Assembly: GCA_963692945.1 (NCBI GenBank)
Contig: OY843585.1
Location: 930,001 to 962,000 of the forward strand
Source of the DNA: Bdellovibrionales bacterium
GTDB taxonomy: Bacteria > Bdellovibrionota > Bdellovibrionia > Bdellovibrionales > UBA1609
Direction of reading: 5' to 3'
Length of the DNA: 32,000 nt
Below, in pieces: positions 5,069-31,797 of the stretch. Every line of letters starts with the position of its first letter. Within the stretch, counting starts at the first letter, position 1. Under the pieces are notes generated by a model. It made no database searches. It was not told the DNA's origin and saw only the letters and a program-made list of their open reading frames with translations. Position numbers and translations under genes: made by a program.

Positions 5069-5644
5069 TTAAGAGTTTTTCTCGTTTTCTTGATTATCAC
5101 TCCATCTTTCAATGCGTGATAAAAGTTTTTGTAGTTTTTGTAATTTTTGGGATTTTTTATCGTCTGTAGAATTTTGAGAGGGTGGGTCTTTTTGTTGATT
5201 CTTTGGTTTTTTAATCCCGTTTTTTTGTTGATATAGAATTTTTTCTAAATGTTGAATGGTTTTTTTAGCTGTTTGATTCCAAGGTTTTATAAAAGAAACC
5301 ATTTTAAAAGCTGCTAGAGTTTTTTCTAAATTTTTTTCTCCTCTATAAATTTCTCCAAGGAGTTGGTAAATTTGATGATTGTCAGGGCTTAACTCTTTGG
5401 CTTTATTGAGGGTTTCAAGGGCTTTAGAGGTCTGACTTTGATCTTTGTAGATTTTTGCTAATAGAATGTAGCCTGTGGCATAGGTAGGGTTATGTTGAAT
5501 GCCTTTAAGGCAGATTTCCTTCGCTTTTTTAAATTCTTTTTTTAGACGATAGACTTGAACAAGAGGGCAAAACACTTTAGATTTTGGATTTTTAGCCAAT
5601 ATAGCCTTGTATTTTTTTATTAGAAAAGGATTAAATAAATCCAT
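5069..5644 (-). CDS. TPR-repeat protein with Lys/Gln-rich C-terminal tail
   Basis: 191-aa ORF with repeated A..Y..LA.IY...G....A helix-pair patterns (ICLKGIQHNPTYATGYILLAKIYKDQSQTSKALETLNKAKELSPDN). Confidence 0.7.
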   Translation of the reverse strand: MDLFNPFLIKKYKAILAKNPKSKVFCPLVQVYRLKKEFKKAKEICLKGIQHNPTYATGYILLAKIYKDQSQTSKALETLNKAKELSPDNHQIYQLLGEIYRGEKNLEKTLAAFKMVSFIKPWNQTAKKTIQHLEKILYQQKNGIKKPKNQQKDPPSQNSTDDKKSQKLQKLQKLLSRIERWSDNQENEKNS

Positions 5645-5713
5645 ATTAAAAATTTGACATAAAATGATTTAGTTGGACAAGTCTTTTTCTTAAGGTATTC
5701 TTAAAAAGCAGCT

Positions 5714-7847: not shown

Positions 7848-8962
7848 TTATTGGTGTTCCAAAAGAAATTAAAAACTCAGAATATAGAGTGGGTTTAACA
7901 GAGACTAATGTTGGTTCTCTTGTGGAAAAAGGTCATAAAGTTTTAATTCAAAAAGGGGCTGGAGAAGGTTGTCAAATTTTTGATGAAGCTTATAAGAAAG
8001 TAGGAGCTCATTTAGTTGATACTCTTTCTGAAGTTTATAAAAATTCAGATATGATAGTGAAAGTTAAAGAACCTCTTGTAGAAGAGTATGATCTTTTTAA
8101 AGAGAATCAAATCTTATTTACTTTTTTGCATTTGGCAGCTGAATCTAAACTCACAGATGTTTTATGTTCTAAAAAAGTTAAAGCTGTTGCTTATGAAACT
8201 ATAGAAAATGAAGATGGAGAACTGCCTCTTTTGAAACCTATGAGTCAAGTTGCAGGAAGAGTTGGTCTTCAAAATGGAATTTATTATCTTCAAAAACACA
8301 ATGGAGGCAAGGGGGTTTTAGCAGGAGGTATTTCTGGTGTAAAACCGGCTCATATTGTTATTTTAGGAGGAGGAATGGCTGGAATTCATGCGGCTATGAT
8401 GGCTGTGGGATTGGAAGCTAAAGTGACCATTTTAGATATTAGTGAAGATAAGTTAAAGTCTTTAGATCAGTTTTTTGGAGGAAAAGTTAGTATGTTGTTA
8501 TCCAATAAAGAGTCTCTTTCTTCTATTGTAAAAGAAGCAGATCTGTTGATTGGATCGGTTTTGCTTAAGGGTGAAAAGGCTCCAAAATTAGTGACAGAAA
8601 AAATGATTCAAACCATGTCAAAAGATAGTGTTGTCGTTGATATATCTATAGATCAAGGAGGTTGTATAGAAACAGCTCGCCCCACATCTCATGAAAAACC
8701 AACTTATAAAGTTCATGATGTGATTCACTATTGTGTTCCTAATATACCAAGTTCTGTATCTAGAACTTCAACTTATGCTTTAACAAATGTGAGTTATCCT
8801 TATGTGTTAGAGATTGCTGAACAAAATTTGGAAGTTGCTATTAAAAATAATTTGGGACTGAGTAAGGGGTTAAATACTTATGGGGGGCATGTGACTTATC
8901 TTCCTGTTTCTAAAGCTCTTAATAAGGAATACAAATCTTTTCAAGATGTAGGTTTTCTCTAG
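7844..8962 (+). CDS. ald: Alanine dehydrogenase
   Basis: MIIGVPKEIKNSEYRVGLT N-terminus and NAD-binding VILGGGMAGIHAA. The TTG start at 7844 overlaps the ruvB TGA (TTGA), suggesting translational coupling. The last 15 nt (8948-8962) are identical to the repeat unit at 11111-11125. Confidence 0.9.
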   Translation: MIIGVPKEIKNSEYRVGLTETNVGSLVEKGHKVLIQKGAGEGCQIFDEAYKKVGAHLVDTLSEVYKNSDMIVKVKEPLVEEYDLFKENQILFTFLHLAAESKLTDVLCSKKVKAVAYETIENEDGELPLLKPMSQVAGRVGLQNGIYYLQKHNGGKGVLAGGISGVKPAHIVILGGGMAGIHAAMMAVGLEAKVTILDISEDKLKSLDQFFGGKVSMLLSNKESLSSIVKEADLLIGSVLLKGEKAPKLVTEKMIQTMSKDSVVVDISIDQGGCIETARPTSHEKPTYKVHDVIHYCVPNIPSSVSRTSTYALTNVSYPYVLEIAEQNLEVAIKNNLGLSKGLNTYGGHVTYLPVSKALNKEYKSFQDVGFL

Positions 8963-9086
8963 GAATACCCTCATGCAAAAACCAGTAGGTTTTCTCTATG
9001 AAACTCTACTTATTTTCTGAACTTGAAGAGTGTCCCTTTTACGATGAAAGGTCAGAAAATAAGTAGAGTAACACTAGAGTTTTGTA
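8963..9086. repeat. Composite structured repeat, copy R1 (left part truncated)
   Basis: It contains a 25-nt unit at 8975-8999 (gcaaaaaccagtaggttttctctat), hairpin A at 9003-9069 and the terminal motif actagagttttgta at 9073-9086. It is near-identical to 11184-11300. Confidence 0.9.
9003..9069. repeat. Hairpin A, copy 1: perfect 18-bp stem and 31-nt loop
   Basis: actctacttattttctga (9003-9020) is the exact reverse complement of tcagaaaataagtagagt (9052-9069). The loop is acttgaagagtgtcccttttacgatgaaagg. Confidence 0.9.
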
Positions 9087-9140
9087 AAACAGGCATGGTT
9101 TTTGCATATAGTTTATGGTAAACTAAAAAAAGGAGAAATA

Positions 9141-9740
9141 ATGAGTAATAAATCTACTGTTTTAGAGGCTAAAGCTTATTTTGCAGAAATTTGGAAACTT
9201 TTCAACGAGCAAAAAGAGTACGATAAACAAACGGCAATGGAGCGAAAAGAATATGAAAAAAAAGCAGCAGAAGATATTAAAGAGCTCCGAGCTAGCCTAA
9301 AAGCGACTGACCTAAAATTCAATGGTCACTGGGGTAAGTTGATGGAGACTTTAGTTGAAGGAGATTTAGTGAAACTTCTAAAACAAAAAGGTATCCAAGT
9401 TGATCGGACGGCAACAAATATACTGAAAAAACACGGGGAACAACAATTTGAATTTGATATTTTAGCTTTCAATGGGGAAGAGATCGTTGTTGTAGAAGTG
9501 AAAACAACTTTAGATATTAAAGAGTTGAATTATTTCATTAAGAAATTAAATAGAGTTACGGATTTTATGCCAGAATTTAAAGGTAAAAAAGTTTATGGAG
9601 CCGTTGCGTATTTAAAAGCCAACCAATCTTCTGACAAAAGAGCTGAGAAAGAGGGTTTGTTTGTGATAAGAGCGACAGGAAGCAGTTCCAGTATTGTTAA
9701 TAAGCAGAGTTTTAAACCCAAAGCTTTTACAAAACTCTAG
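9141..9740 (+). CDS. PD-(D/E)XK (restriction-endonuclease fold) nuclease-like protein with N-terminal charged coiled-coil
   Basis: FEFDILAFNGEEIVVVEVKTTL fits the D...(D/E)xK signature, and the N-terminal 60 aa are K/E-rich and helical. I place the start at ATG 9141, preceded by AGGAG at 9131-9135, whereas the track begins at 9102. The last four codons plus stop (acaaaactctag) lie in the 14-nt repeat motif. Confidence 0.6.
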   Translation: MSNKSTVLEAKAYFAEIWKLFNEQKEYDKQTAMERKEYEKKAAEDIKELRASLKATDLKFNGHWGKLMETLVEGDLVKLLKQKGIQVDRTATNILKKHGEQQFEFDILAFNGEEIVVVEVKTTLDIKELNYFIKKLNRVTDFMPEFKGKKVYGAVAYLKANQSSDKRAEKEGLFVIRATGSSSSIVNKQSFKPKAFTKL

Positions 9741-9903
9741 TTCTTTCCTTTTTATTTTCACGAGATTTGAAGAGCAAAGCCCTTCATGCAAAAACCAGTA
9801 GGTTTTCTCTATGTTAAAACTTTCATTTTCACGAGATTTGAAGAACATCTCTCCTGTGATGAAAAGCTCGTGAAAATGAAAGTTCACACACTAGAGTTTT
9901 GTA
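9728..9903. repeat. Composite structured repeat, copy R2, bounded by perfect 14-bp inverted repeats
   Basis: tacaaaactctagt (9728-9741) is the reverse complement of actagagttttgta (9890-9903). Inside are a half-unit at 9752-9787, a 25-nt unit at 9788-9812 and hairpin B at 9818-9884. Segment 9752-9813 matches 11153-11214 at 61 of 62 positions. Confidence 0.9.
9818..9884. repeat. Hairpin B: perfect 18-bp stem and 31-nt loop, same geometry as hairpin A with a different stem sequence
   Basis: aactttcattttcacgag (9818-9835) is the exact reverse complement of ctcgtgaaaatgaaagtt (9867-9884). The loop atttgaagaacatctctcctgtgatgaaaag shares TTGAAGA and GATGAAA(A)G with the hairpin A loop. Confidence 0.9.
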
Positions 9904-9989
9904 GATGTCTTCTCAAGACGATTTACTCTTTTGAGAAGTGAATTTAGATTCTCTTTGAGAGATTCATTTTCTTTTTGAGGGTTCACGAG
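9891..9989 (-). pseudogene. Relic of the 3' end of a tail-fibre-like gene (about 30 codons plus stop)
   Basis: 9891-9976 aligns by eye without gaps to 11288-11373, with 7 mismatches in about 86 nt. It translates as ...ENESLKENLNSLLKRVNRLEKTSTKL*, against ...KENTSLKENLNSLIKRVNRLEKTTTKL* for the intact gene. An in-frame upstream stop lies at 9990-9992. Confidence 0.8.
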
Positions 9990-10173
9990 TTAAAAAGGTT
10001 TTACCTATGTGACTTCTTAATTAGCGAAACAGAGAGAGGATTCATTCTCACGCAAACAAAAAAATTTTATATTCCTGTCTATTCTATGTACAAAAAAACC
10101 CGACTAAGATAAAGGAAAAAAGACTTTCTTGGTTTATACAAGATCATCCAGTTACTTATAAAAACAGAGAATA

Positions 10174-10845
10174 TCAAGACCAGTTTTTTGGCTTGAACAT
10201 TCCATTGACTCTATTGGGAAATTGACTTTCTTTTAAATGACTTTCTTTCAACCTTAAGGTCTTATTTGATATTCTTCTTAAATCCATATGAGTTTCCACC
10301 TTAAAGGGTGTAATGACTACTATTTTCTTCCTTAATTTGTTCCGAGCAAATCTAAGAGGCAATTTTAAATCTGTATCATTTGACAATAATACTACATAGT
10401 CCACGTTTCCCTTACAACAATCATATATAATATGTGTCGCTATATTAACATCTGTTTCTTTTTCTTCGTGCTTAGGAAATTGAAAGATACTTCCTCTTAA
10501 AAGGCTCTTTATTTGCTCTAAGTTTTTAGAGTTCCCTTGCAAAATAGACAATCTTTCTATTTGGTTATTTTTTATTTTTATATGTCTTTTTTTGAACTTA
10601 CCATAAACTATTTCAACTTTTTGAAGAGTCCTTAGAGCAGTTAACCATACATTCTGGTTTTGTGTTGAGTTTGAAAATGGAGTTTTAGCTGTAAAATATT
10701 TTATTTTAATTATCTTATTTAAAGAAGGATCTAAAACAAGGCTAATAAGTTTCTCTATGTTAAGCCATTTATAGGGAGTATCTTTTAATGAATAATAGAG
10801 GTTAAATCCGTCAATATAAACAATGGTATTAGAAGTAGGGAGCAT
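10174..10845 (-). CDS. NYN-domain (PIN-like/LabA-like) predicted ribonuclease
   Basis: IVYIDGFNLYY N-terminal acidic motif, EKETDVNIATHIIYD, and DYVVLLSNDTDLKLPLRFAR followed by KKIVVITP. This order of conserved Asp motifs is typical of NYN domains. Confidence 0.75.
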   Translation of the reverse strand: MLPTSNTIVYIDGFNLYYSLKDTPYKWLNIEKLISLVLDPSLNKIIKIKYFTAKTPFSNSTQNQNVWLTALRTLQKVEIVYGKFKKRHIKIKNNQIERLSILQGNSKNLEQIKSLLRGSIFQFPKHEEKETDVNIATHIIYDCCKGNVDYVVLLSNDTDLKLPLRFARNKLRKKIVVITPFKVETHMDLRRISNKTLRLKESHLKESQFPNRVNGMFKPKNWS

Positions 10846-10859
10846 AAATATTTGGCCAT

Positions 10860-10889
10860 AAAAAAACGAAGGCGATCTTTCAATCGCCT
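10860..10889 (-). terminator. Rho-independent terminator-like hairpin ending 15 nt upstream of the NYN start codon
   Basis: The minus strand reads AGGCGAT-TGAAAG-ATCGCCT (7-bp GC-rich stem, 10870-10876 and 10883-10889), then TCG and T7 (A7 at 10860-10866 on +). Confidence 0.6.
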
Positions 10890-10928
10890 CGCACCTCCCA
10901 GCCGTAGCCGAAGAGGGAAATCACTACT

Positions 10929-10956
10929 AGTATATATACACTAGATAAAAAGTCAA
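10929..10956 (-). promoter_or_regulatory. Sigma70-like promoter TTGACT-N16-TATACT
   Basis: On the minus strand the -35 TTGACT is at 10956-10951 and the -10 TATACT at 10934-10929. It would start a transcript of about 60 nt that runs into the terminator at 10860-10889. Confidence 0.45.
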
Positions 10957-11014
10957 ATCTTATCTTCTTATCTTAATTTTAACATATTTACACTATATGT
11001 TATCGGACTATTAT

Positions 11015-11125
11015 CTGAAAAACTTAAGTTTTTCTCTAGAAATACCTTTTGCGAAAACCAGTAAGATTTCTCTAAGCGAAAACCAGTAAGATTTCTCTAA
11101 GCGAAAACCAGTAGGTTTTCTCTAG
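11015..11125. repeat. Tandem array of the 25-nt mini-hairpin unit (one diverged plus three head-to-tail copies)
   Basis: Unit at 11015-11039 is ctgaaaaacttaagtttttctctag. Units at 11051-11075 and 11076-11100 are both gcgaaaaccagtaagatttctctaa. Unit at 11101-11125 is gcgaaaaccagtaggttttctctag. There are no spacers between the last three. Confidence 0.9.
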
Positions 11126-11150
11126 TTCAAACATAAGTTTATTAAGTAAC

Positions 11151-11300
11151 TCTTATTTTCACGAGATTTGAAGAGCAAAGCCCTTCATGCGAAAACCAGT
11201 AGGTTTTCTCTATGAAACTCTACTTATTTTCTGAACTTGAAGAGTGTCCCTCTTACGATGAAAGGTCAGAAAATAAGTAGAGTAACACTAGAGTTTTGTA
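11151..11300. repeat. Composite structured repeat, copy R3 (full length)
   Basis: It contains a half-unit at 11153-11188, a 25-nt unit at 11189-11213, hairpin A at 11217-11283 and the terminal motif actagagttttgta at 11287-11300, which holds the fibre gene stop. Confidence 0.9.
11217..11283. repeat. Hairpin A, copy 2: perfect 18-bp stem and 31-nt loop
   Basis: 11217-11234 is the reverse complement of 11266-11283. The loop differs from copy 1 at one base (ctctt versus ctttt), a position that could pair with aagag within the loop (G-C versus G-U). Confidence 0.9.
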
Positions 11301-13435
11301 GTTGTCTTCTCAAGACGATTCACTCTTTTGATAAGTGAGTTTAGATTCTCTTTAAGAGATGTATTTTCTTTTTTCAAAGAAGTGAGTTCTCTTTCTAGTT
11401 TTTTATTTGTAGATGCTAATTTCTTCTTTGTTTGAAGTTGTGTCTCTTTTAGTTTTTTTGTCATTTCTTTTGTGGTGGTTTTTACATCATCTGAAGTTTG
11501 TTTAAGTTTAATTTTTGTTTCTTCAATTTGACTTTGGCTCGCTCCCAACTCTTTTTTAACAGTTAAAAACTCTGTTTGAAAAGTCTTTTTTAAATCAGCT
11601 AGAGATTTTGTAAGAGCCGATACAGACTCTTTAAGAAAGTTTAGAGTTTTTGTTGTGGAGCCATAAAATTCTTTAAAGGCTTTTATGATAACAGGAATAA
11701 GCCCTTGATAGTTTAAACTTAAAGTCTTTTTTGGATCTGAACCTTCCAACACTAACTCTGGGTATTCTTTTTGAACCTCTTGAGCAATAAGACCTATCTG
11801 TTTTGTTTGAACTTTATGTTTGTCTTTCCAGTAAAAAGTTTTTGGGTTTAATTTTAAAAGAGAATGGCTTTGATTTTTTAAATCCTTTATCTTGGTTTTG
11901 AGTCTTCGGTCTGATGATGTTTCTGGGAAAAGCCATGCAGGAAGAGTAGGAGAAGACACATTGGTATCCAAGGTGAAATAATCTGAAATACGTCCCGGAG
12001 TAGTAGTAGATTTTTTAACCTTTAATTCGCCATCTATAATCAAATCCCCATGTATTGTAACTTGTCTTTCATCAACTACAACAGGGGCAGTTTCATACCT
12101 TAAATTCCCTGTGATTAAACCACCGATATCTAGTTTGTAACTTTCATCTTCACAAGCAACAGATTTACAGCCAGATCTATGTCCAATAGCAATATTATTA
12201 CTTCCAGTTTTGTTTAAAAGACCTGCAAAGGATCCAAAAAAATTGTTCTCTCTTCCAGTTGTGTTTCCAGTACCTGCAAAGAATCCAAAAAAACTATTCT
12301 TATGTCCACCTATGTTTTGACCACCTGCAAAGGATCCAAAAAAATTGTTCTCTTTTCCAGTTGTGTTTCCAATACCTGCACCACTTCCAAAAAAACTGTT
12401 ACTATCTCCAGTTTCGTTTGTATAACCTGCTTCATATCCAAAAAAACTGTTATTATTTCCAGTTATGTTTGAATAACCTGCACCACTTCCAAAGAAATTG
12501 TTATACTTTCCACCTATGTTTGCACGACCCGCTTGATTTCCAAAAAAACTGTTATTATGTCCACTTGTGTTTGCACGACCTGCAAGGTATCCAAAAAAAC
12601 TGTTAACACCTCCAGTTGTGTTTGAAAGACCTGCACTCCTTCCAAAAAAACTGTTCCACTTTCCACCTGTGTTTTCATGACCTGCTTTATAACCCACAAA
12701 AGTATTCCCTTCACCTGTGTTTGTTGAATTAAGTCTTTTTGTTGATTTCCCTGCTCCAAAACCAAAAGCCGTGTGCTTATCTACACTTACCTCTGTTGTA
12801 TCTCCACAACCAACTAAGCTTAAACTTAATTCACCTGTAGAATCATCTGTCACTTTATAACAATTTGGATTCCCACTCCCACCAACAACTGCATCACCAC
12901 AAACATTTTTAGCATAAGTCAAAGTGGTTGTATCAGCTATGATTAACTCTACCACTTTTTCCACCTCTGTTTTTCTGGTTGCATGAGTAGTAGCTGGTAA
13001 AGCATCTATCTGTGTCTGTATATTTGTAGGAAGACCAGACTTCCCATCTGCTTTATCAATAATTTCTTCATAAAAAAGAGAACAGCATTGAGTGGCTTTT
13101 ACTGGAATATTAAAATCCCATTCTGAACTCAAAGTTCCTGTCCCTCCTGTTAAGTGAATGATTTTAGGTCTTTTTTCATCTGGCACAGCTGTTTTACAAT
13201 CTATTAAATGTTTATCGGTTGCTAAATTAGGATCACACTTCCTAAAATTAAATGTCCAACCTGTTGGTTTATTTGGAGTATAACTATTTAATATGCTTAA
13301 ACATTTTTTACCAGCCTCTGTGTTTGTTAAATTATCTTCACTTGCAAACCTGTCTATAATGGATTGAGATTGAATCACTTTCCAAAGTTCAGTATTAGAA
13401 TCTTTTATTTTTTTTTGTGAAGTGGATTGTTGCAT
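11288..13435 (-). CDS. Phage-tail-fibre-like surface protein. It has a Cys-containing N-terminal region, ten 17-aa NSFFGxxAGxxNTxGxx repeats, an S74-type intramolecular chaperone (autoprocessing) domain and a coiled-coil tail.
   Basis: The repeats are read directly from the translation. SSDRRLKTKIKDL...QIGLIAQEVQKEYPELV...LNYQGLIPVIIKAFKE matches the SDxRxK...GxIAQEV..P..V pattern of the tail-spike/endosialidase C-terminal chaperone domain. The annotated Met is probably not the true start (see the 13436-13671 segment). Confidence 0.8.
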   Translation of the reverse strand: MQQSTSQKKIKDSNTELWKVIQSQSIIDRFASEDNLTNTEAGKKCLSILNSYTPNKPTGWTFNFRKCDPNLATDKHLIDCKTAVPDEKRPKIIHLTGGTGTLSSEWDFNIPVKATQCCSLFYEEIIDKADGKSGLPTNIQTQIDALPATTHATRKTEVEKVVELIIADTTTLTYAKNVCGDAVVGGSGNPNCYKVTDDSTGELSLSLVGCGDTTEVSVDKHTAFGFGAGKSTKRLNSTNTGEGNTFVGYKAGHENTGGKWNSFFGRSAGLSNTTGGVNSFFGYLAGRANTSGHNNSFFGNQAGRANIGGKYNNFFGSGAGYSNITGNNNSFFGYEAGYTNETGDSNSFFGSGAGIGNTTGKENNFFGSFAGGQNIGGHKNSFFGFFAGTGNTTGRENNFFGSFAGLLNKTGSNNIAIGHRSGCKSVACEDESYKLDIGGLITGNLRYETAPVVVDERQVTIHGDLIIDGELKVKKSTTTPGRISDYFTLDTNVSSPTLPAWLFPETSSDRRLKTKIKDLKNQSHSLLKLNPKTFYWKDKHKVQTKQIGLIAQEVQKEYPELVLEGSDPKKTLSLNYQGLIPVIIKAFKEFYGSTTKTLNFLKESVSALTKSLADLKKTFQTEFLTVKKELGASQSQIEETKIKLKQTSDDVKTTTKEMTKKLKETQLQTKKKLASTNKKLERELTSLKKENTSLKENLNSLIKRVNRLEKTTTKL
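12170..12706 (-). repeat. In-frame 51-bp (17-codon) tandem repeats within the fibre gene
   Basis: ccaaaaaaa(c/t)tgtt...cctgca units recur every 51 nt on the + strand. They generate the shadow ORFs 12259-12606 (+) and 12514-12765 (-). Confidence 0.85.
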
Positions 13436-13671
13436 AATAGATGTCCCAACTCCTAAAATAACGATAGCCCCTATTGCCGATGCAATAACAACACTAATAA
13501 TAGCAGAACCTTTTTGATTTAAATAAGAAGGGTTGTTGTTTTTTAAAAGAAAGGAAAGTTTGTGAAATAAAAGAAATTTACATTTTAAAAGTAAATGGGG
13601 GGGGGGGGTAGAAAGATTTTTTTAAAATAAAAAAGAGATTTTCTAGCTCTAGATTTAAAAGCTTTTTTCAT
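13436..13671 (-). other. Out-of-frame 5' segment of the fibre gene: start codon, basic N-terminus, poly-Pro and transmembrane helix
   Basis: ATG 13671 gives MKKAFKSRARKSLFYFKKIFLPPPPIYF, with a stop at 13585. In the fibre frame, 13596-13436 is open and encodes HLLLKCKFLLFHKLSFLLKNNNPSYLNQKGSAIISVVIASAIGAIVILGVGTSI directly before Met 13435. Confidence 0.7.
13597..13608 (-). repeat. G12 (C12 on the coding strand) homopolymer, a candidate slipped-strand phase-variation tract
   Basis: Counted directly: gggg at 13597-13600 plus gggggggg at 13601-13608. Confidence 0.95.
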
Positions 13672-13677
13672 AGATAA

Positions 13678-13706
13678 ATTATGAAGAAGGTTTTAAAAAA
13701 TATCAA
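13678..13706 (-). promoter_or_regulatory. Candidate promoter TTGATA-N17-CATAAT ending 6 nt before ATG 13671 (possible leaderless transcript)
   Basis: On the minus strand the -35 is at 13706-13701 and the -10 at 13683-13678. No Shine-Dalgarno lies between the -10 and the ATG. Confidence 0.35.
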
Positions 13707-13708
13707 CC

Positions 13709-13803
13709 CTAATTTTTCTAGAAGAAAGTAGGGCAAGTAAAGAAAAATCAGCCTATCTAATTTTTCTAGAAGAAAGTAGGGCAAGTAAAGAAAAATCAGC
13801 CTA
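13709..13803. repeat. Perfect 47-nt direct duplication with a 48-nt period
   Basis: ctaatttttctagaagaaagtagggcaagtaaagaaaaatcagccta occurs at 13709-13755 and again at 13757-13803, between the E1-beta stop and the fibre promoter. Confidence 0.95.
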
Positions 13804-13856
13804 AAACCTATAGTTTAGTCACTCACCTAGCAAATTAAGTCAAAATCTAAAAAACA

Positions 13857-21010: not shown

Positions 21011-21856
21011 CTATTTATAATTGGAAATTAAATTTTTTGGACCACTTTCAAATAAAACCTCTAAACGATTATTTTTAGAAGATAAAATAAAACCCCAGCC
21101 AAAAGTCTTATGTTGGAGGCCGCTATGCGTCTCAAAGCTTTTTTCCATACTGTATGAAAAAGTTTTTTGATTTTTATATTCTTGATACAGAGTTTCCCAA
21201 TTTACATTTCCAAGATTAGGAAGATGTACTTTTGTTGAAATGGTTTTTTTAGCGAAATCTTTTTTAGGAGGCTTTGTTGCTTTAGCAGTTACTTTATTTG
21301 ATTTTTTAGGGAGTGTCGTTGTCTTAGCAGTTGATTTAGCAGTTACTTTATTTGATTTTTTAGGGAGTGTTGTTGCTTTAGCAGTTACTTTATTTGATTT
21401 TTTAGGGAGTGTTGTTGCTTTAGCAGTTACTTTATTTGACTTTTTAGGGAGTGTCGTTGTCTTAGCAGTTGCTTTAGCAGTTACTTTATTTGATTTTTTA
21501 GGGAGTGTTGTTGTCTTAGCAGTTGCTTTAGCAGTTACTTTATTTGATTTTTTAGGGAGTGTCGTTGTCTTAGCAGTTGATTTAGTGGTGAGTTTATTTG
21601 ATTTTTTAGGAGGTTTTGTTGTTTTAGCAGTTGCTTTAGCAGTGGTTTTCTTTGATTTTTTAGGAGGCATTGTTGCTTTAGCAGTTGATTTAGCAGTTAC
21701 TTTCTTTGATTTTTTAGGAGGTTTTGTTGATTTAGCAGTTACTTTAGCAGTGGATTTCTTTGACTTTTTAAGAGGCTTTGTTGTTTTAGTAGATCTGAGT
21801 TTTTTATTGCTCTGATTCTTTTTTACTTTTTTAGTTGTTTTTTGCTTTGTAGTCAT
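21011..21856 (-). CDS. Histone-H1-like Lys/Ala/Thr/Pro repeat protein with a C-terminal Tudor-like domain resembling the UvrD/PcrA C-terminus
   Basis: The N-terminal ~195 aa are (T)AKTTTLPKKSNKVTAKA-type repeats. The C-terminal GLQHKTFGWGFILSSKNNRLEVLFESGPKNLISNY fits G..(V).H..FG.G.(V)......(L).V.F..G.K.L...Y. It lies 9 nt upstream of infA. Confidence 0.7.
   Translation of the reverse strand: MTTKQKTTKKVKKNQSNKKLRSTKTTKPLKKSKKSTAKVTAKSTKPPKKSKKVTAKSTAKATMPPKKSKKTTAKATAKTTKPPKKSNKLTTKSTAKTTTLPKKSNKVTAKATAKTTTLPKKSNKVTAKATAKTTTLPKKSNKVTAKATTLPKKSNKVTAKATTLPKKSNKVTAKSTAKTTTLPKKSNKVTAKATKPPKKDFAKKTISTKVHLPNLGNVNWETLYQEYKNQKTFSYSMEKSFETHSGLQHKTFGWGFILSSKNNRLEVLFESGPKNLISNYK
21271..21800 (-). repeat. 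In-frame tandem repeats (54-bp and 42-bp units) encoding the Lys-rich repeats
   Basis: Near-identical agcagttactttatttgattttttagggagtgt(c/t)gttg... units are visible on the + strand. They create the antisense shadow ORF 21240-21815. Confidence 0.85.
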
Positions 21857-30915: not shown

Positions 30916-31797
30916 ATGTTATTAGATCAACAAGATGATTTTTTTAGAGATCTTTTATTTAACAAACAATATTCTGAAAACACTATCGCTGCTTATAGGA
31001 GAGACTTATTTATTTATCAAGAATTTTGTAAAACAAAAAAGCAAATTTCAGAATTTTATCAATATCTTACAAAAAAAAATTTAAGTCCAAAATCTCAAGT
31101 TCGTATTATTAGTTGTCTAAGAATGTATTTTAAATATTTACAAAGTTGTGGAATATCTACACCTGATATAAATATTTTAAAATTTCCTAAGTTAAAAAAG
31201 AAGTTACCAAAAATTATCAGTATCAAAGAATTTAAAGCTTTATTAGAGGCTTCTAGAGAGAAAGATAAAGTTTTAACCATTCGCAATCATCTTGTATTAA
31301 GTTTTTTATATGGTTTAGGTTGTAGAGTGAGTGAATTGGTTCATTTGGATTTAGAGGATTTTAATGCTACAGAATCTTGGGTGAATATAACAGGAAAAGG
31401 GAATAGACAAAGATTGTTACCTCTATCTAAAGACCTCTATGAACTTTTAAATTTTTATTTAAAAGAATCTCGTCCGTTGGTTGTTAAGACAGAAATGCAG
31501 GCTTTGCTTTTTAATAATAAAGGAAATCGTCCTTCCCGTATAGATATTTGGAGATGGCTTAAAAAATGGTCTCAACAAGCAGGTTTTGATGATGTTAAAA
31601 ATCCCCATTCTTTTCGTCATGGATGTGCTACGGGATTGTTAGAACGAGGGGCTGATTTGAGGAGTATACAAAAACTACTAGGTCATCTCAATATTCAAAC
31701 AACTCAAATTTACACTTCTGTTACTTCTAAGCATTTGAAAGAAACTGTTGATAGATGTCATCCATTCTCTCAATCTGAAACTTCAGTTGAAGATTGA
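30916..31797 (+). CDS. xerD: Tyrosine site-specific recombinase, XerD-like
   Basis: ENTIAAYRRDL at the N-terminus, GCRVSELVHL, HSFRHGCAT, and LLGHLNIQTTQIYTSV (catalytic Tyr). XerD versus XerC cannot be settled by eye. Confidence 0.7.
   Translation: MLLDQQDDFFRDLLFNKQYSENTIAAYRRDLFIYQEFCKTKKQISEFYQYLTKKNLSPKSQVRIISCLRMYFKYLQSCGISTPDINILKFPKLKKKLPKIISIKEFKALLEASREKDKVLTIRNHLVLSFLYGLGCRVSELVHLDLEDFNATESWVNITGKGNRQRLLPLSKDLYELLNFYLKESRPLVVKTEMQALLFNNKGNRPSRIDIWRWLKKWSQQAGFDDVKNPHSFRHGCATGLLERGADLRSIQKLLGHLNIQTTQIYTSVTSKHLKETVDRCHPFSQSETSVED

Follow-up and report, generated by a model that had tools for sequence, protein, structure and literature searches.

The window, by which we mean the whole stretch of 32,000 nucleotides analysed here, consists of housekeeping genes apart from a single 4.9-kb island. 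In three relatives (L004, L005 and L006, with Ald 85, 84 and 77% identical, respectively) the genes for alanine dehydrogenase (Ald) and PDH E1-beta converge with 0-4 nt between their stop codons, the island is absent, and the gene order RuvC-RuvA-RuvB-Ald followed by E1beta-E1alpha-Tsp-TopA is kept. As the two genes are stop to stop in all three relatives, positions 8948-13856 constitute an island. The initial annotation of this DNA had concentrated on the nuclease-like gene and had not noticed that the entire region is an island. It contains three repeat modules, a nuclease gene, a fibre remnant, an NYN gene and a fibre gene. Its limits and its genes are as follows.

8948-13856, no strand: 4.9-kb island between the stop codons of the convergent Ald and PDH E1-beta genes, from the synteny of relatives
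9141-9740, plus strand: gene for a DUF8196 / Hjc-like PD-(D/E)XK nuclease, 199 aa, with a long N-terminal helix (Pfam Hjc, E 2.6e-9; homologue label PF26618)
9894-9989, minus strand: truncated 3' remnant of a fibre gene, 32 codons, ending TSTKL-stop (78% amino acid identity to fibre residues 684-715)
10174-10845, minus strand: NYN-domain gene, a HEC-09-like candidate defence RNase (Pfam NYN, 1.2e-10; PADLOC HEC-09, 1.1e-37)
11288-13435, minus strand: tail-fibre-like gene, 715 aa, with a Peptidase_S74 chaperone domain, ending TTTKL-stop inside a 14-mer (Pfam PF13884, 4.8e-15; PHROG tail-fibre families)

HEC-09 itself gave no protection in its authors' assays (bioRxiv 10.1101/2024.01.29.577857).

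The nuclease-like protein matches only Hjc, DUF234 and DUF6602 in Pfam, and the NCBIfam Hjc model gives 24.9 bits against a cut-off of 70 bits. Its homologues carry the precomputed label PF26618, which is DUF8196. The residues of the D..(D/E)xK motif, D106, E119 and K121, do not vary across 35 sequences. The AlphaFold model has a mean pLDDT of 79.7, with values above 85 for the nuclease domain; it combines one long helix over residues 5-82 with a PD-(D/E)XK domain whose nearest folds are AF1548, VC1899, Can2/Card1 and NucS/EndoMS. By motif and predicted fold, the protein belongs to the PD-(D/E)XK superfamily, and by the label of its homologues to DUF8196, a name for which we found no mention in any paper. 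It shares with Hjc, NucS and Can2-Card1 a sequence match (Hjc), fold matches (NucS, Can2 and Card1) and the D..ExK motif, but lacks CARF and PCNA-binding parts, and the length of its N-terminal helix varies between paralogues. The protein is not TnsA-like. TnsA of Tn7 has a similar restriction-endonuclease-like catalytic fold, but it is absent among the top 50 PDB fold matches of our model; the protein studied here combines an N-terminal coiled coil with the nuclease domain, and neither a TnsB/C partner nor Tn7 ends are present. No recognised transposase class was found in the protein by Pfam, NCBIfam or fold matching.

The sequence ACTAGAGTTTTGTA, a 14-mer, occurs exactly four times: on the plus strand at 9073-9086, 9890-9903 and 11287-11300, and as its reverse complement, on the minus strand, at 9728-9741. 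The first and last of these positions flank the nuclease gene, and the perfect 14-bp inverted repeat described in the initial annotation is real and in fact extends to a perfect 17-mer (9073-9089 / 9725-9741), with 80% complementarity across 35 nt. An inverted repeat could arise by chance in AT-rich DNA, and the window does contain 555 inverted-repeat pairs above threshold, many of them in A/T runs. Here, however, there are four exact copies, and with up to 2 mismatches allowed the 14-mer has 5 matches in the window against 0.68 expected, a count that is reached in 0/100 shuffles. Chance is thereby refuted, and we give it practically no weight.

All copies of the 14-mer lie within longer repeats, each 3-9 nt away from a hairpin arm, and the 14-mer is exactly conserved while the flanks on both sides diverge. 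The longer repeats are three composite hairpin modules of 120-176 nt, all within 2.3 kb and in the same orientation, of which the 14-mer forms the outer edge. A module comprises a small palindrome, here called the S-box (AAAACCAGTAGGTTTTCTCTA; six copies within 2 mismatches), a hairpin with a stem of 18-19 bp (H1 or H2) and the 14-mer 3-5 nt beyond it. The stems of H1 and H2 differ, and their loops are alike (TTGAAGA..GATGAAA). The repeat features of the island are as follows.

8948-8962, plus strand: final four codons and stop of Ald (VGFL-stop), identical to the 3' part of the S-box (GTAGGTTTTCTCTAG, exact at 8948 and 11111)
8963-9086, plus strand: module A, with S-box 8978-8998, hairpin H1 9004-9072, AAC and the 14-mer (from repeat match and folding)
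9073-9089, plus strand: left arm of the inverted repeat, with the 14-mer at 9073-9086 and a perfect match over 17 nt
9725-9741, minus strand: right arm of the inverted repeat, source of the codons TKL and the TAG stop
9728-9903, no strand: module B, a 176-nt palindromic unit with S-box 9791-9811 and hairpin H2 9818-9884, the inverted 14-mers forming its basal stem (from arms and folding)
11050-11124, plus strand: three tandem 25-nt S-box units
11148-11300, plus strand: module C, a mosaic that combines the left part of module B with module A (S-box, H1 11218-11286, 14-mer 11287-11300)

The modules are related to each other in pieces. Positions 8968-9086 are repeated at 11182-11300 with 3 mismatches, a direct repeat of 119 nt whose copies are 2214 bp apart and whose identity ends exactly at the edge of the 14-mer. 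That the left arm of the inverted repeat is simply the last 14 nt of this longer repeat had been overlooked in the initial annotation, as had the inverted pair of 14-mers at the two ends of 9728-9903. The left part of module C (11153-11214) is 98% identical to 9752-9813 in module B, and the two halves of module C, from B and from A, are joined within the S-box. Furthermore, 9888-9976 is 92% identical to 11285-11373. In module B, the arms 9728-9768 and 9863-9903 (41 nt) are 78% complementary, with the terminal 14 nt perfect, and the unit folds as a branched palindrome with its 14-mers paired (-34.2 kcal/mol, z -5.7). Module A folds at -26.4 kcal/mol (z -7.9). Overall, the module folds range from -26 to -34 kcal/mol with z between -5.2 and -7.9, and 0/200 shuffles fold as well.

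In their stable stem-loops and imperfect palindromic structure the modules resemble REP/BIME sequences, and like other extragenic palindromes they lie 3' of genes, namely Ald, the nuclease gene, the fibre remnant and the fibre gene. The hairpins, which have no T-run, did not register as intrinsic terminators, and no canonical promoter or terminator was called at the arms of the inverted repeat. Judging from their position alone, the hairpins probably serve the convergent genes as 3'-end or terminator-like structures. Known RNA families gave no match at gathering thresholds, and a known ribozyme or sRNA was rejected, as a permissive threshold yielded only generic hairpin (miRNA-precursor) matches.

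The modules also coincide with the ends of genes. The C-terminus common to the nuclease family (..KPKxF, followed by the stop or by one more residue) is reached at 9728. The F codon ends at this position, which is the first base of the 14-mer, so that the stop and the three additional codons TKL come from the 14-mer. The right arm accordingly reads TTT ACA AAA CTC TAG, which agrees with the initial statement that the last codons and the stop of the ORF are located in the right repeat. Among 97 gene calls (window and related loci), the protein nearly always stops at this F or one residue beyond it, and the TKL tail is found in the window copy only. The 14-mer carries the TAG in one frame of its complement, and the plus-strand copies at 9890 and 11287 likewise constitute the final codons and stop of the minus-strand fibre remnant (TSTKL-stop) and fibre gene (TTTKL-stop), in line with the earlier observation of two further 14-mers at fibre-gene 3' ends. 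A search with the C-terminal tail of the fibre for homologues in which TKL might be native matched the S74 domain alone and is uninformative. The last 15 nt of Ald are the same as the S-box sequence at 11111-11125, and Ald in the relatives ends ..KDLSL-stop, ..KDLNL-stop or ..KEFQI-stop. An invertible segment was rejected by reasoning: since the stop-codon sequence is the same in both arms, inversion would alter no protein.

A single ORF with its upstream promoter region inside a perfect 17-nt inverted repeat has the layout of an insertion sequence, and the initial annotation had read the 669-bp unit 9073-9741 as a minimal insertion element; the 14/17-mer would be its terminal inverted repeats, and the nuclease, its only gene, would mobilise it. 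The multi-copy nature of the gene is consistent with this proposal. The source genome has four paralogues on the same 1.56-Mb contig that are 79-100% identical to each other, whereas the nearest outside homologue is 55-58% identical; near-identical multi-copy paralogues are also found in other genomes. The site is empty in L004, L005 and L006 and hence not fixed. What is missing in these relatives, however, is the entire 4.9-kb island rather than the 669-bp unit. As part of a larger repeat that also ends the fibre genes, the 14-mer is common to unrelated gene ends. No direct repeat of any length, and thus no target-site duplication, flanks 9073/9741 (..GTAAC/ACTAGAG on the left and CTCTAGT/TCTTT on the right), and the same is true of 9728/9903 (..GCTTT/TACAAA and TTTGTA/GATGT). 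Insertion sequences also differ in their enzymes: DDE, HUH, serine and tyrosine transposase domains are all absent from the small PD-(D/E)XK nuclease encoded here, and neither a known transposase fold nor TnsA appears among its structural matches as specified above.

The behaviour of the DUF8196 family (2353 matches; multi-copy) also argues against an element of this kind. We compared the 200 nt upstream of the gene with the stop region for inverted matches in 78 genes (from 80 metagenome loci, the window and other genomes). The longest flanking inverted match is 5-9 nt in 74 of the 78 genes, 11 nt in one and 16 nt in two, both from locus L026; a match of 17 nt is found for the window gene alone. 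In other words, the flanking inverted repeat does not exceed 11 nt in 75 of the 78 genes. The long bracket in L026 is a generic REP-like palindrome present in at least 6 copies in that locus, which is the same situation as in the window: the bracket comes from generic palindromes. Furthermore, the boundaries of the paralogues vary and carry no inverted repeats. The duplicated units in two other genomes extend from the promoter to the stop codon. In a Bdellovibrionales MAG the DNA common to three copies begins about 180 nt upstream of the gene and reaches its stop codon, and in one pair the shared stretch is longer, which means that the ends are not fixed; in another genome the similarity of two family copies covers -280 to +9 nt with respect to the gene. 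Paralogues differ mainly through indels in the N-terminal coiled coil. Tandem arrays also occur, for example four copies in L088 that are 96-98% identical and separated by spacers of just 28 nt. A search of 72,556 plasmids and 50,697 phages gave neither family members nor similar DNA. A scan of viral contigs with a 16-mer gave 9 single matches in unrelated coding contexts, consistent with chance, and the S-box had no match in viral contigs. The region is thus insertional in the sense that it is absent from three relatives and that three further paralogues of the gene reside in the genome, whereas the shared repeat, the lack of target-site duplication and the negative family tests do not bear out a 669-bp one-gene element with its own termini, which we regard as improbable.

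A related set of explanations assigns the 14-mer a role as a target of the nuclease. Removal of 9087-9727 would leave a perfect 28-bp palindrome, and the promoter and CDS in this interval might be a mobile cassette that enters the centre of a palindromic site of two inverted 14-mers beside hairpin modules, where the Hjc-like nuclease would itself recognise the 14-mer or the extruded cruciform; we consider this about as improbable as the insertion element. In a selfish, homing-type version the DUF8196 nuclease would recognise the 14-mer, the 28-bp palindrome or an extruded cruciform and spread by break repair. The sequence similarity to Hjc, a four-way-junction resolvase, the intact D..ExK motif and the near-identical paralogues within the genome are compatible with homing, as is the palindrome itself. 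Across the family, however, there is no association with hairpins or inverted repeats, and ordinary duplication or gene conversion would account for the tandem arrays and for the variable ends of the duplications. Hairpins are not enriched beside family genes (0.64 per kb, compared to 0.65 per kb in other intergenic DNA), and a family-wide link between the nuclease gene and hairpins was rejected on these values. No operator common to the family was found upstream either, as no 8-mer is shared across 87 upstream regions; similarity among three Bdellovibrionota-like genomes is weak and pairwise only. Homing is in our view very improbable, slightly more so than the cassette just described.

We instead favour, with moderate confidence, a reading in which the modules are a REP/BIME- or MITE-like family of hairpin repeats in a recently acquired island, the copies of which have recombined into a mosaic. 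The nuclease gene is bracketed because module A lies on one side of it and the inverted arm of module B on the other, and the inverted 14/17-mer around it is most likely a by-product of the local hairpin repeat rather than the terminus of an element. Genes abutting a module would read into it and stop at its TAG. In this way the nuclease would have gained TKL and a stop, the fibre gene and its remnant would end with TKL and a stop on the other arm, and Ald would end within the S-box in like manner. Recombination among modules would have assembled the present gene order, as suggested by the mosaic structure of module C, the 119-nt direct repeat with its 2214-bp spacing and the surviving 3' remnant of the fibre gene.

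The position of the 14-mers beside hairpin arms, the repeat identity that ends at the 14-mer edge, the stable folds, the TKL and Ald tails, the absence of the island from three syntenic relatives, the tandem arrays, the L026 case and the negative family tests all support this reading. Other observations count against it. Module copies are known from the island alone: the 14-mer, the S-box, H1 and H2 have no copy in 422 kb of related loci, and in the 32-kb window they occur in the island only. All four paralogues of the source genome carry a (T/Q)KL tail, which implies that a 14-mer-like end travels with the gene. Upstream of a family gene in another genome lies a region with weak similarity to the segment 9061-9087 (2/500 shuffles, uncorrected for five comparisons), and the absence of a T-run from the hairpins also has to be weighed. 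Finally, the 14-mer is exact between diverged flanks, as would be seen for a recombination core.

This last point leads to the alternative of a site-specific recombination site with the 14-mer as its core, which would make the region a cassette array, analogous to integron cassettes with their attC sites. Two putative cassettes can be delineated, 9087-9903 (the nuclease gene and the palindromic module) and 9904-11300 (the fibre remnant, the NYN gene and a module), each ending in a hairpin and ACACTAGAGTTTTGTA. As in integron cassettes, an ORF precedes an imperfect palindrome that has an inverse core at one end and a direct core at the other, and similarity between copies starts or stops at the three direct ACACTAGAGTTTTGTA copies. 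The 119-nt direct repeat around a 2214-bp segment is what circle integration would leave behind, and the cargo is accessory or defence-like. The details differ from integrons in several respects. The core GTTTTGT, as read from the sequence, does not fit the attC consensus (R''/R', RYYYAAC / GTTRRRY), the palindrome is longer (176 nt), and there is no IntI. No integron integrase, invertase or transposase was found in or near the island in the 32-kb window, whose sole recombinase is a Xer-like tyrosine recombinase (30916-31797) 17 kb off among housekeeping genes. There are also just two putative cassettes, with no second array for comparison. We judge a cassette array unlikely, although less so than the insertion element or homing. 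The initial suggestion that the 14-mer could be a recombination site is nearer to the observations than an element end, but it is not proven.

Compared with known repeat families, the recombined hairpin modules that we favour are closest to two types. Like the REP/BIME sequences of enterobacteria, they are stable stem-loop palindromes located after stop codons or between convergent genes, and they form recombination-prone mosaics with short linker motifs. Unlike them, the stems here are AT-rich and 18-19 bp long, the modules overlap and supply stop codons, three or four copies are known, all from one island, and a RAYT transposase was not seen. The second type are MITEs that add to coding sequence, such as the Rickettsia palindromic elements and the Neisseria Correia elements. 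The palindromic unit 9728-9903 resembles such elements in its size class (~100-180 nt), its terminal inverted repeats and the way it joins abutting reading frames, but it lacks a target-site duplication, and neither dispersed copies nor a parent IS are in evidence.

The locus shows that a gene located between two palindromic intergenic repeats mimics a minimal insertion element, which calls for caution in the annotation of such units. The repeats of the island supply the final codons and stop of three unrelated genes, Ald, the nuclease gene and the fibre gene, and thus reshape gene ends. DUF8196 emerges as a large uncharacterised family of nucleases whose copies are near-identical within a genome and vary in the length of their N-terminal coiled coil. 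If the nuclease were to use the 14-mer as a site, the finding would become important; and if the gene were a self-mobile cassette, DUF8196 would represent a new class of self-spreading nuclease genes.

A 4.9-kb island (8948-13856) fills the interval between the genes for alanine dehydrogenase (Ald) and PDH E1-beta. The island is missing in three syntenic relatives, in which the stop codons of these two genes adjoin. Its cargo is as follows.

8948-13856: the nuclease gene (9141-9740, +), an NYN/HEC-09-like gene (10174-10845, -) and a tail-fibre-like gene (11288-13435, -)

At the left edge, the last four codons and the stop codon of Ald (8948-8962) differ from those of the relatives and have the sequence of the S-box, the small palindromic repeat within the hairpin modules of the island. 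This sequence, GTAGGTTTTCTCTAG, has a second copy at 11111-11125.

Several other features of the region were also recorded. A perfect 47-nt tandem direct repeat at 13709-13803, just within the right edge of the island, contains the palindromic motif TTTCTAGAA, which recurs near S-boxes at 11030-11045 and 13636-13650. Upstream of the fibre gene, ~165 nt from its start, 12 consecutive G at 13597-13608 (poly-C as read on the strand of the gene) form a candidate tract for phase variation by strand slippage. The fibre gene itself has a long in-frame periodic repeat of nine 51-nt units (12115-12777), and 12 in-frame units of 42/54 nt (21222-21845) lie within ORF 21011-21856 (-), which has no Pfam match. 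The only canonical terminator-like site of the region, a GC stem followed by a T-run (10869-10890, -), is placed between the NYN gene and the hairpin modules of the fibre gene. The nuclease gene leader (9108-9141) and the interior of the NYN gene (10578-10611) share a 34-nt inverted match (82%), both translating to IVYGK(L/F)KK. This match could be due to chance in AT-rich DNA or could be a scrap of an NYN gene.

The nuclease belongs to the DUF8196 family, whose genes occur as several near-identical copies per genome (P0001-P0004 in the source genome; L001-L003, L007/L008 and L088 in others), varying chiefly in how many KETDRQ-like repeats the N-terminal coiled coil contains. At L088, four copies stand in tandem, 28 nt apart. 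The short motifs AAGTAGAGTA, TTGTAAAACA..GGC and TTTTTGCA are common to the upstream regions in three Bdellovibrionota-like genomes.

Window 9061-9087: shared upstream motifs
L007 3942-3969: shared upstream motifs
L001 about 5600-5650: shared upstream motifs

Between 2 and 54 of 500 shuffles reach their pairwise scores, and the signal is therefore weak.

Repeats were also seen near some DUF8196 genes elsewhere. A Bdellovibrionales MAG has its own ~140-nt palindromic repeat, which occurs in both orientations and is found upstream of two of its three paralogues, with further copies elsewhere.

L001 5338-5575, 7550-7699 and 9819-10377: ~140-nt repeat
L003 5322-5706: ~140-nt repeat

In another genome, a stretch of ~123 nt downstream of one paralogue (L007 4682-4804) is absent at the other (L008); with its ends GTTGCACATA and TATGTGCAAC and TCAG on either side, it looks like a small MITE. 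Two DUF8196 genes at L026 (856-4000) are surrounded by six or more copies of a REP-like palindrome (AATTTGGGACACCCAT..ATGGGTGTCCCAAATT) within 3.4 kb. The 16-nt bracket at this locus results from that palindrome, the same route as for the bracket in the window.
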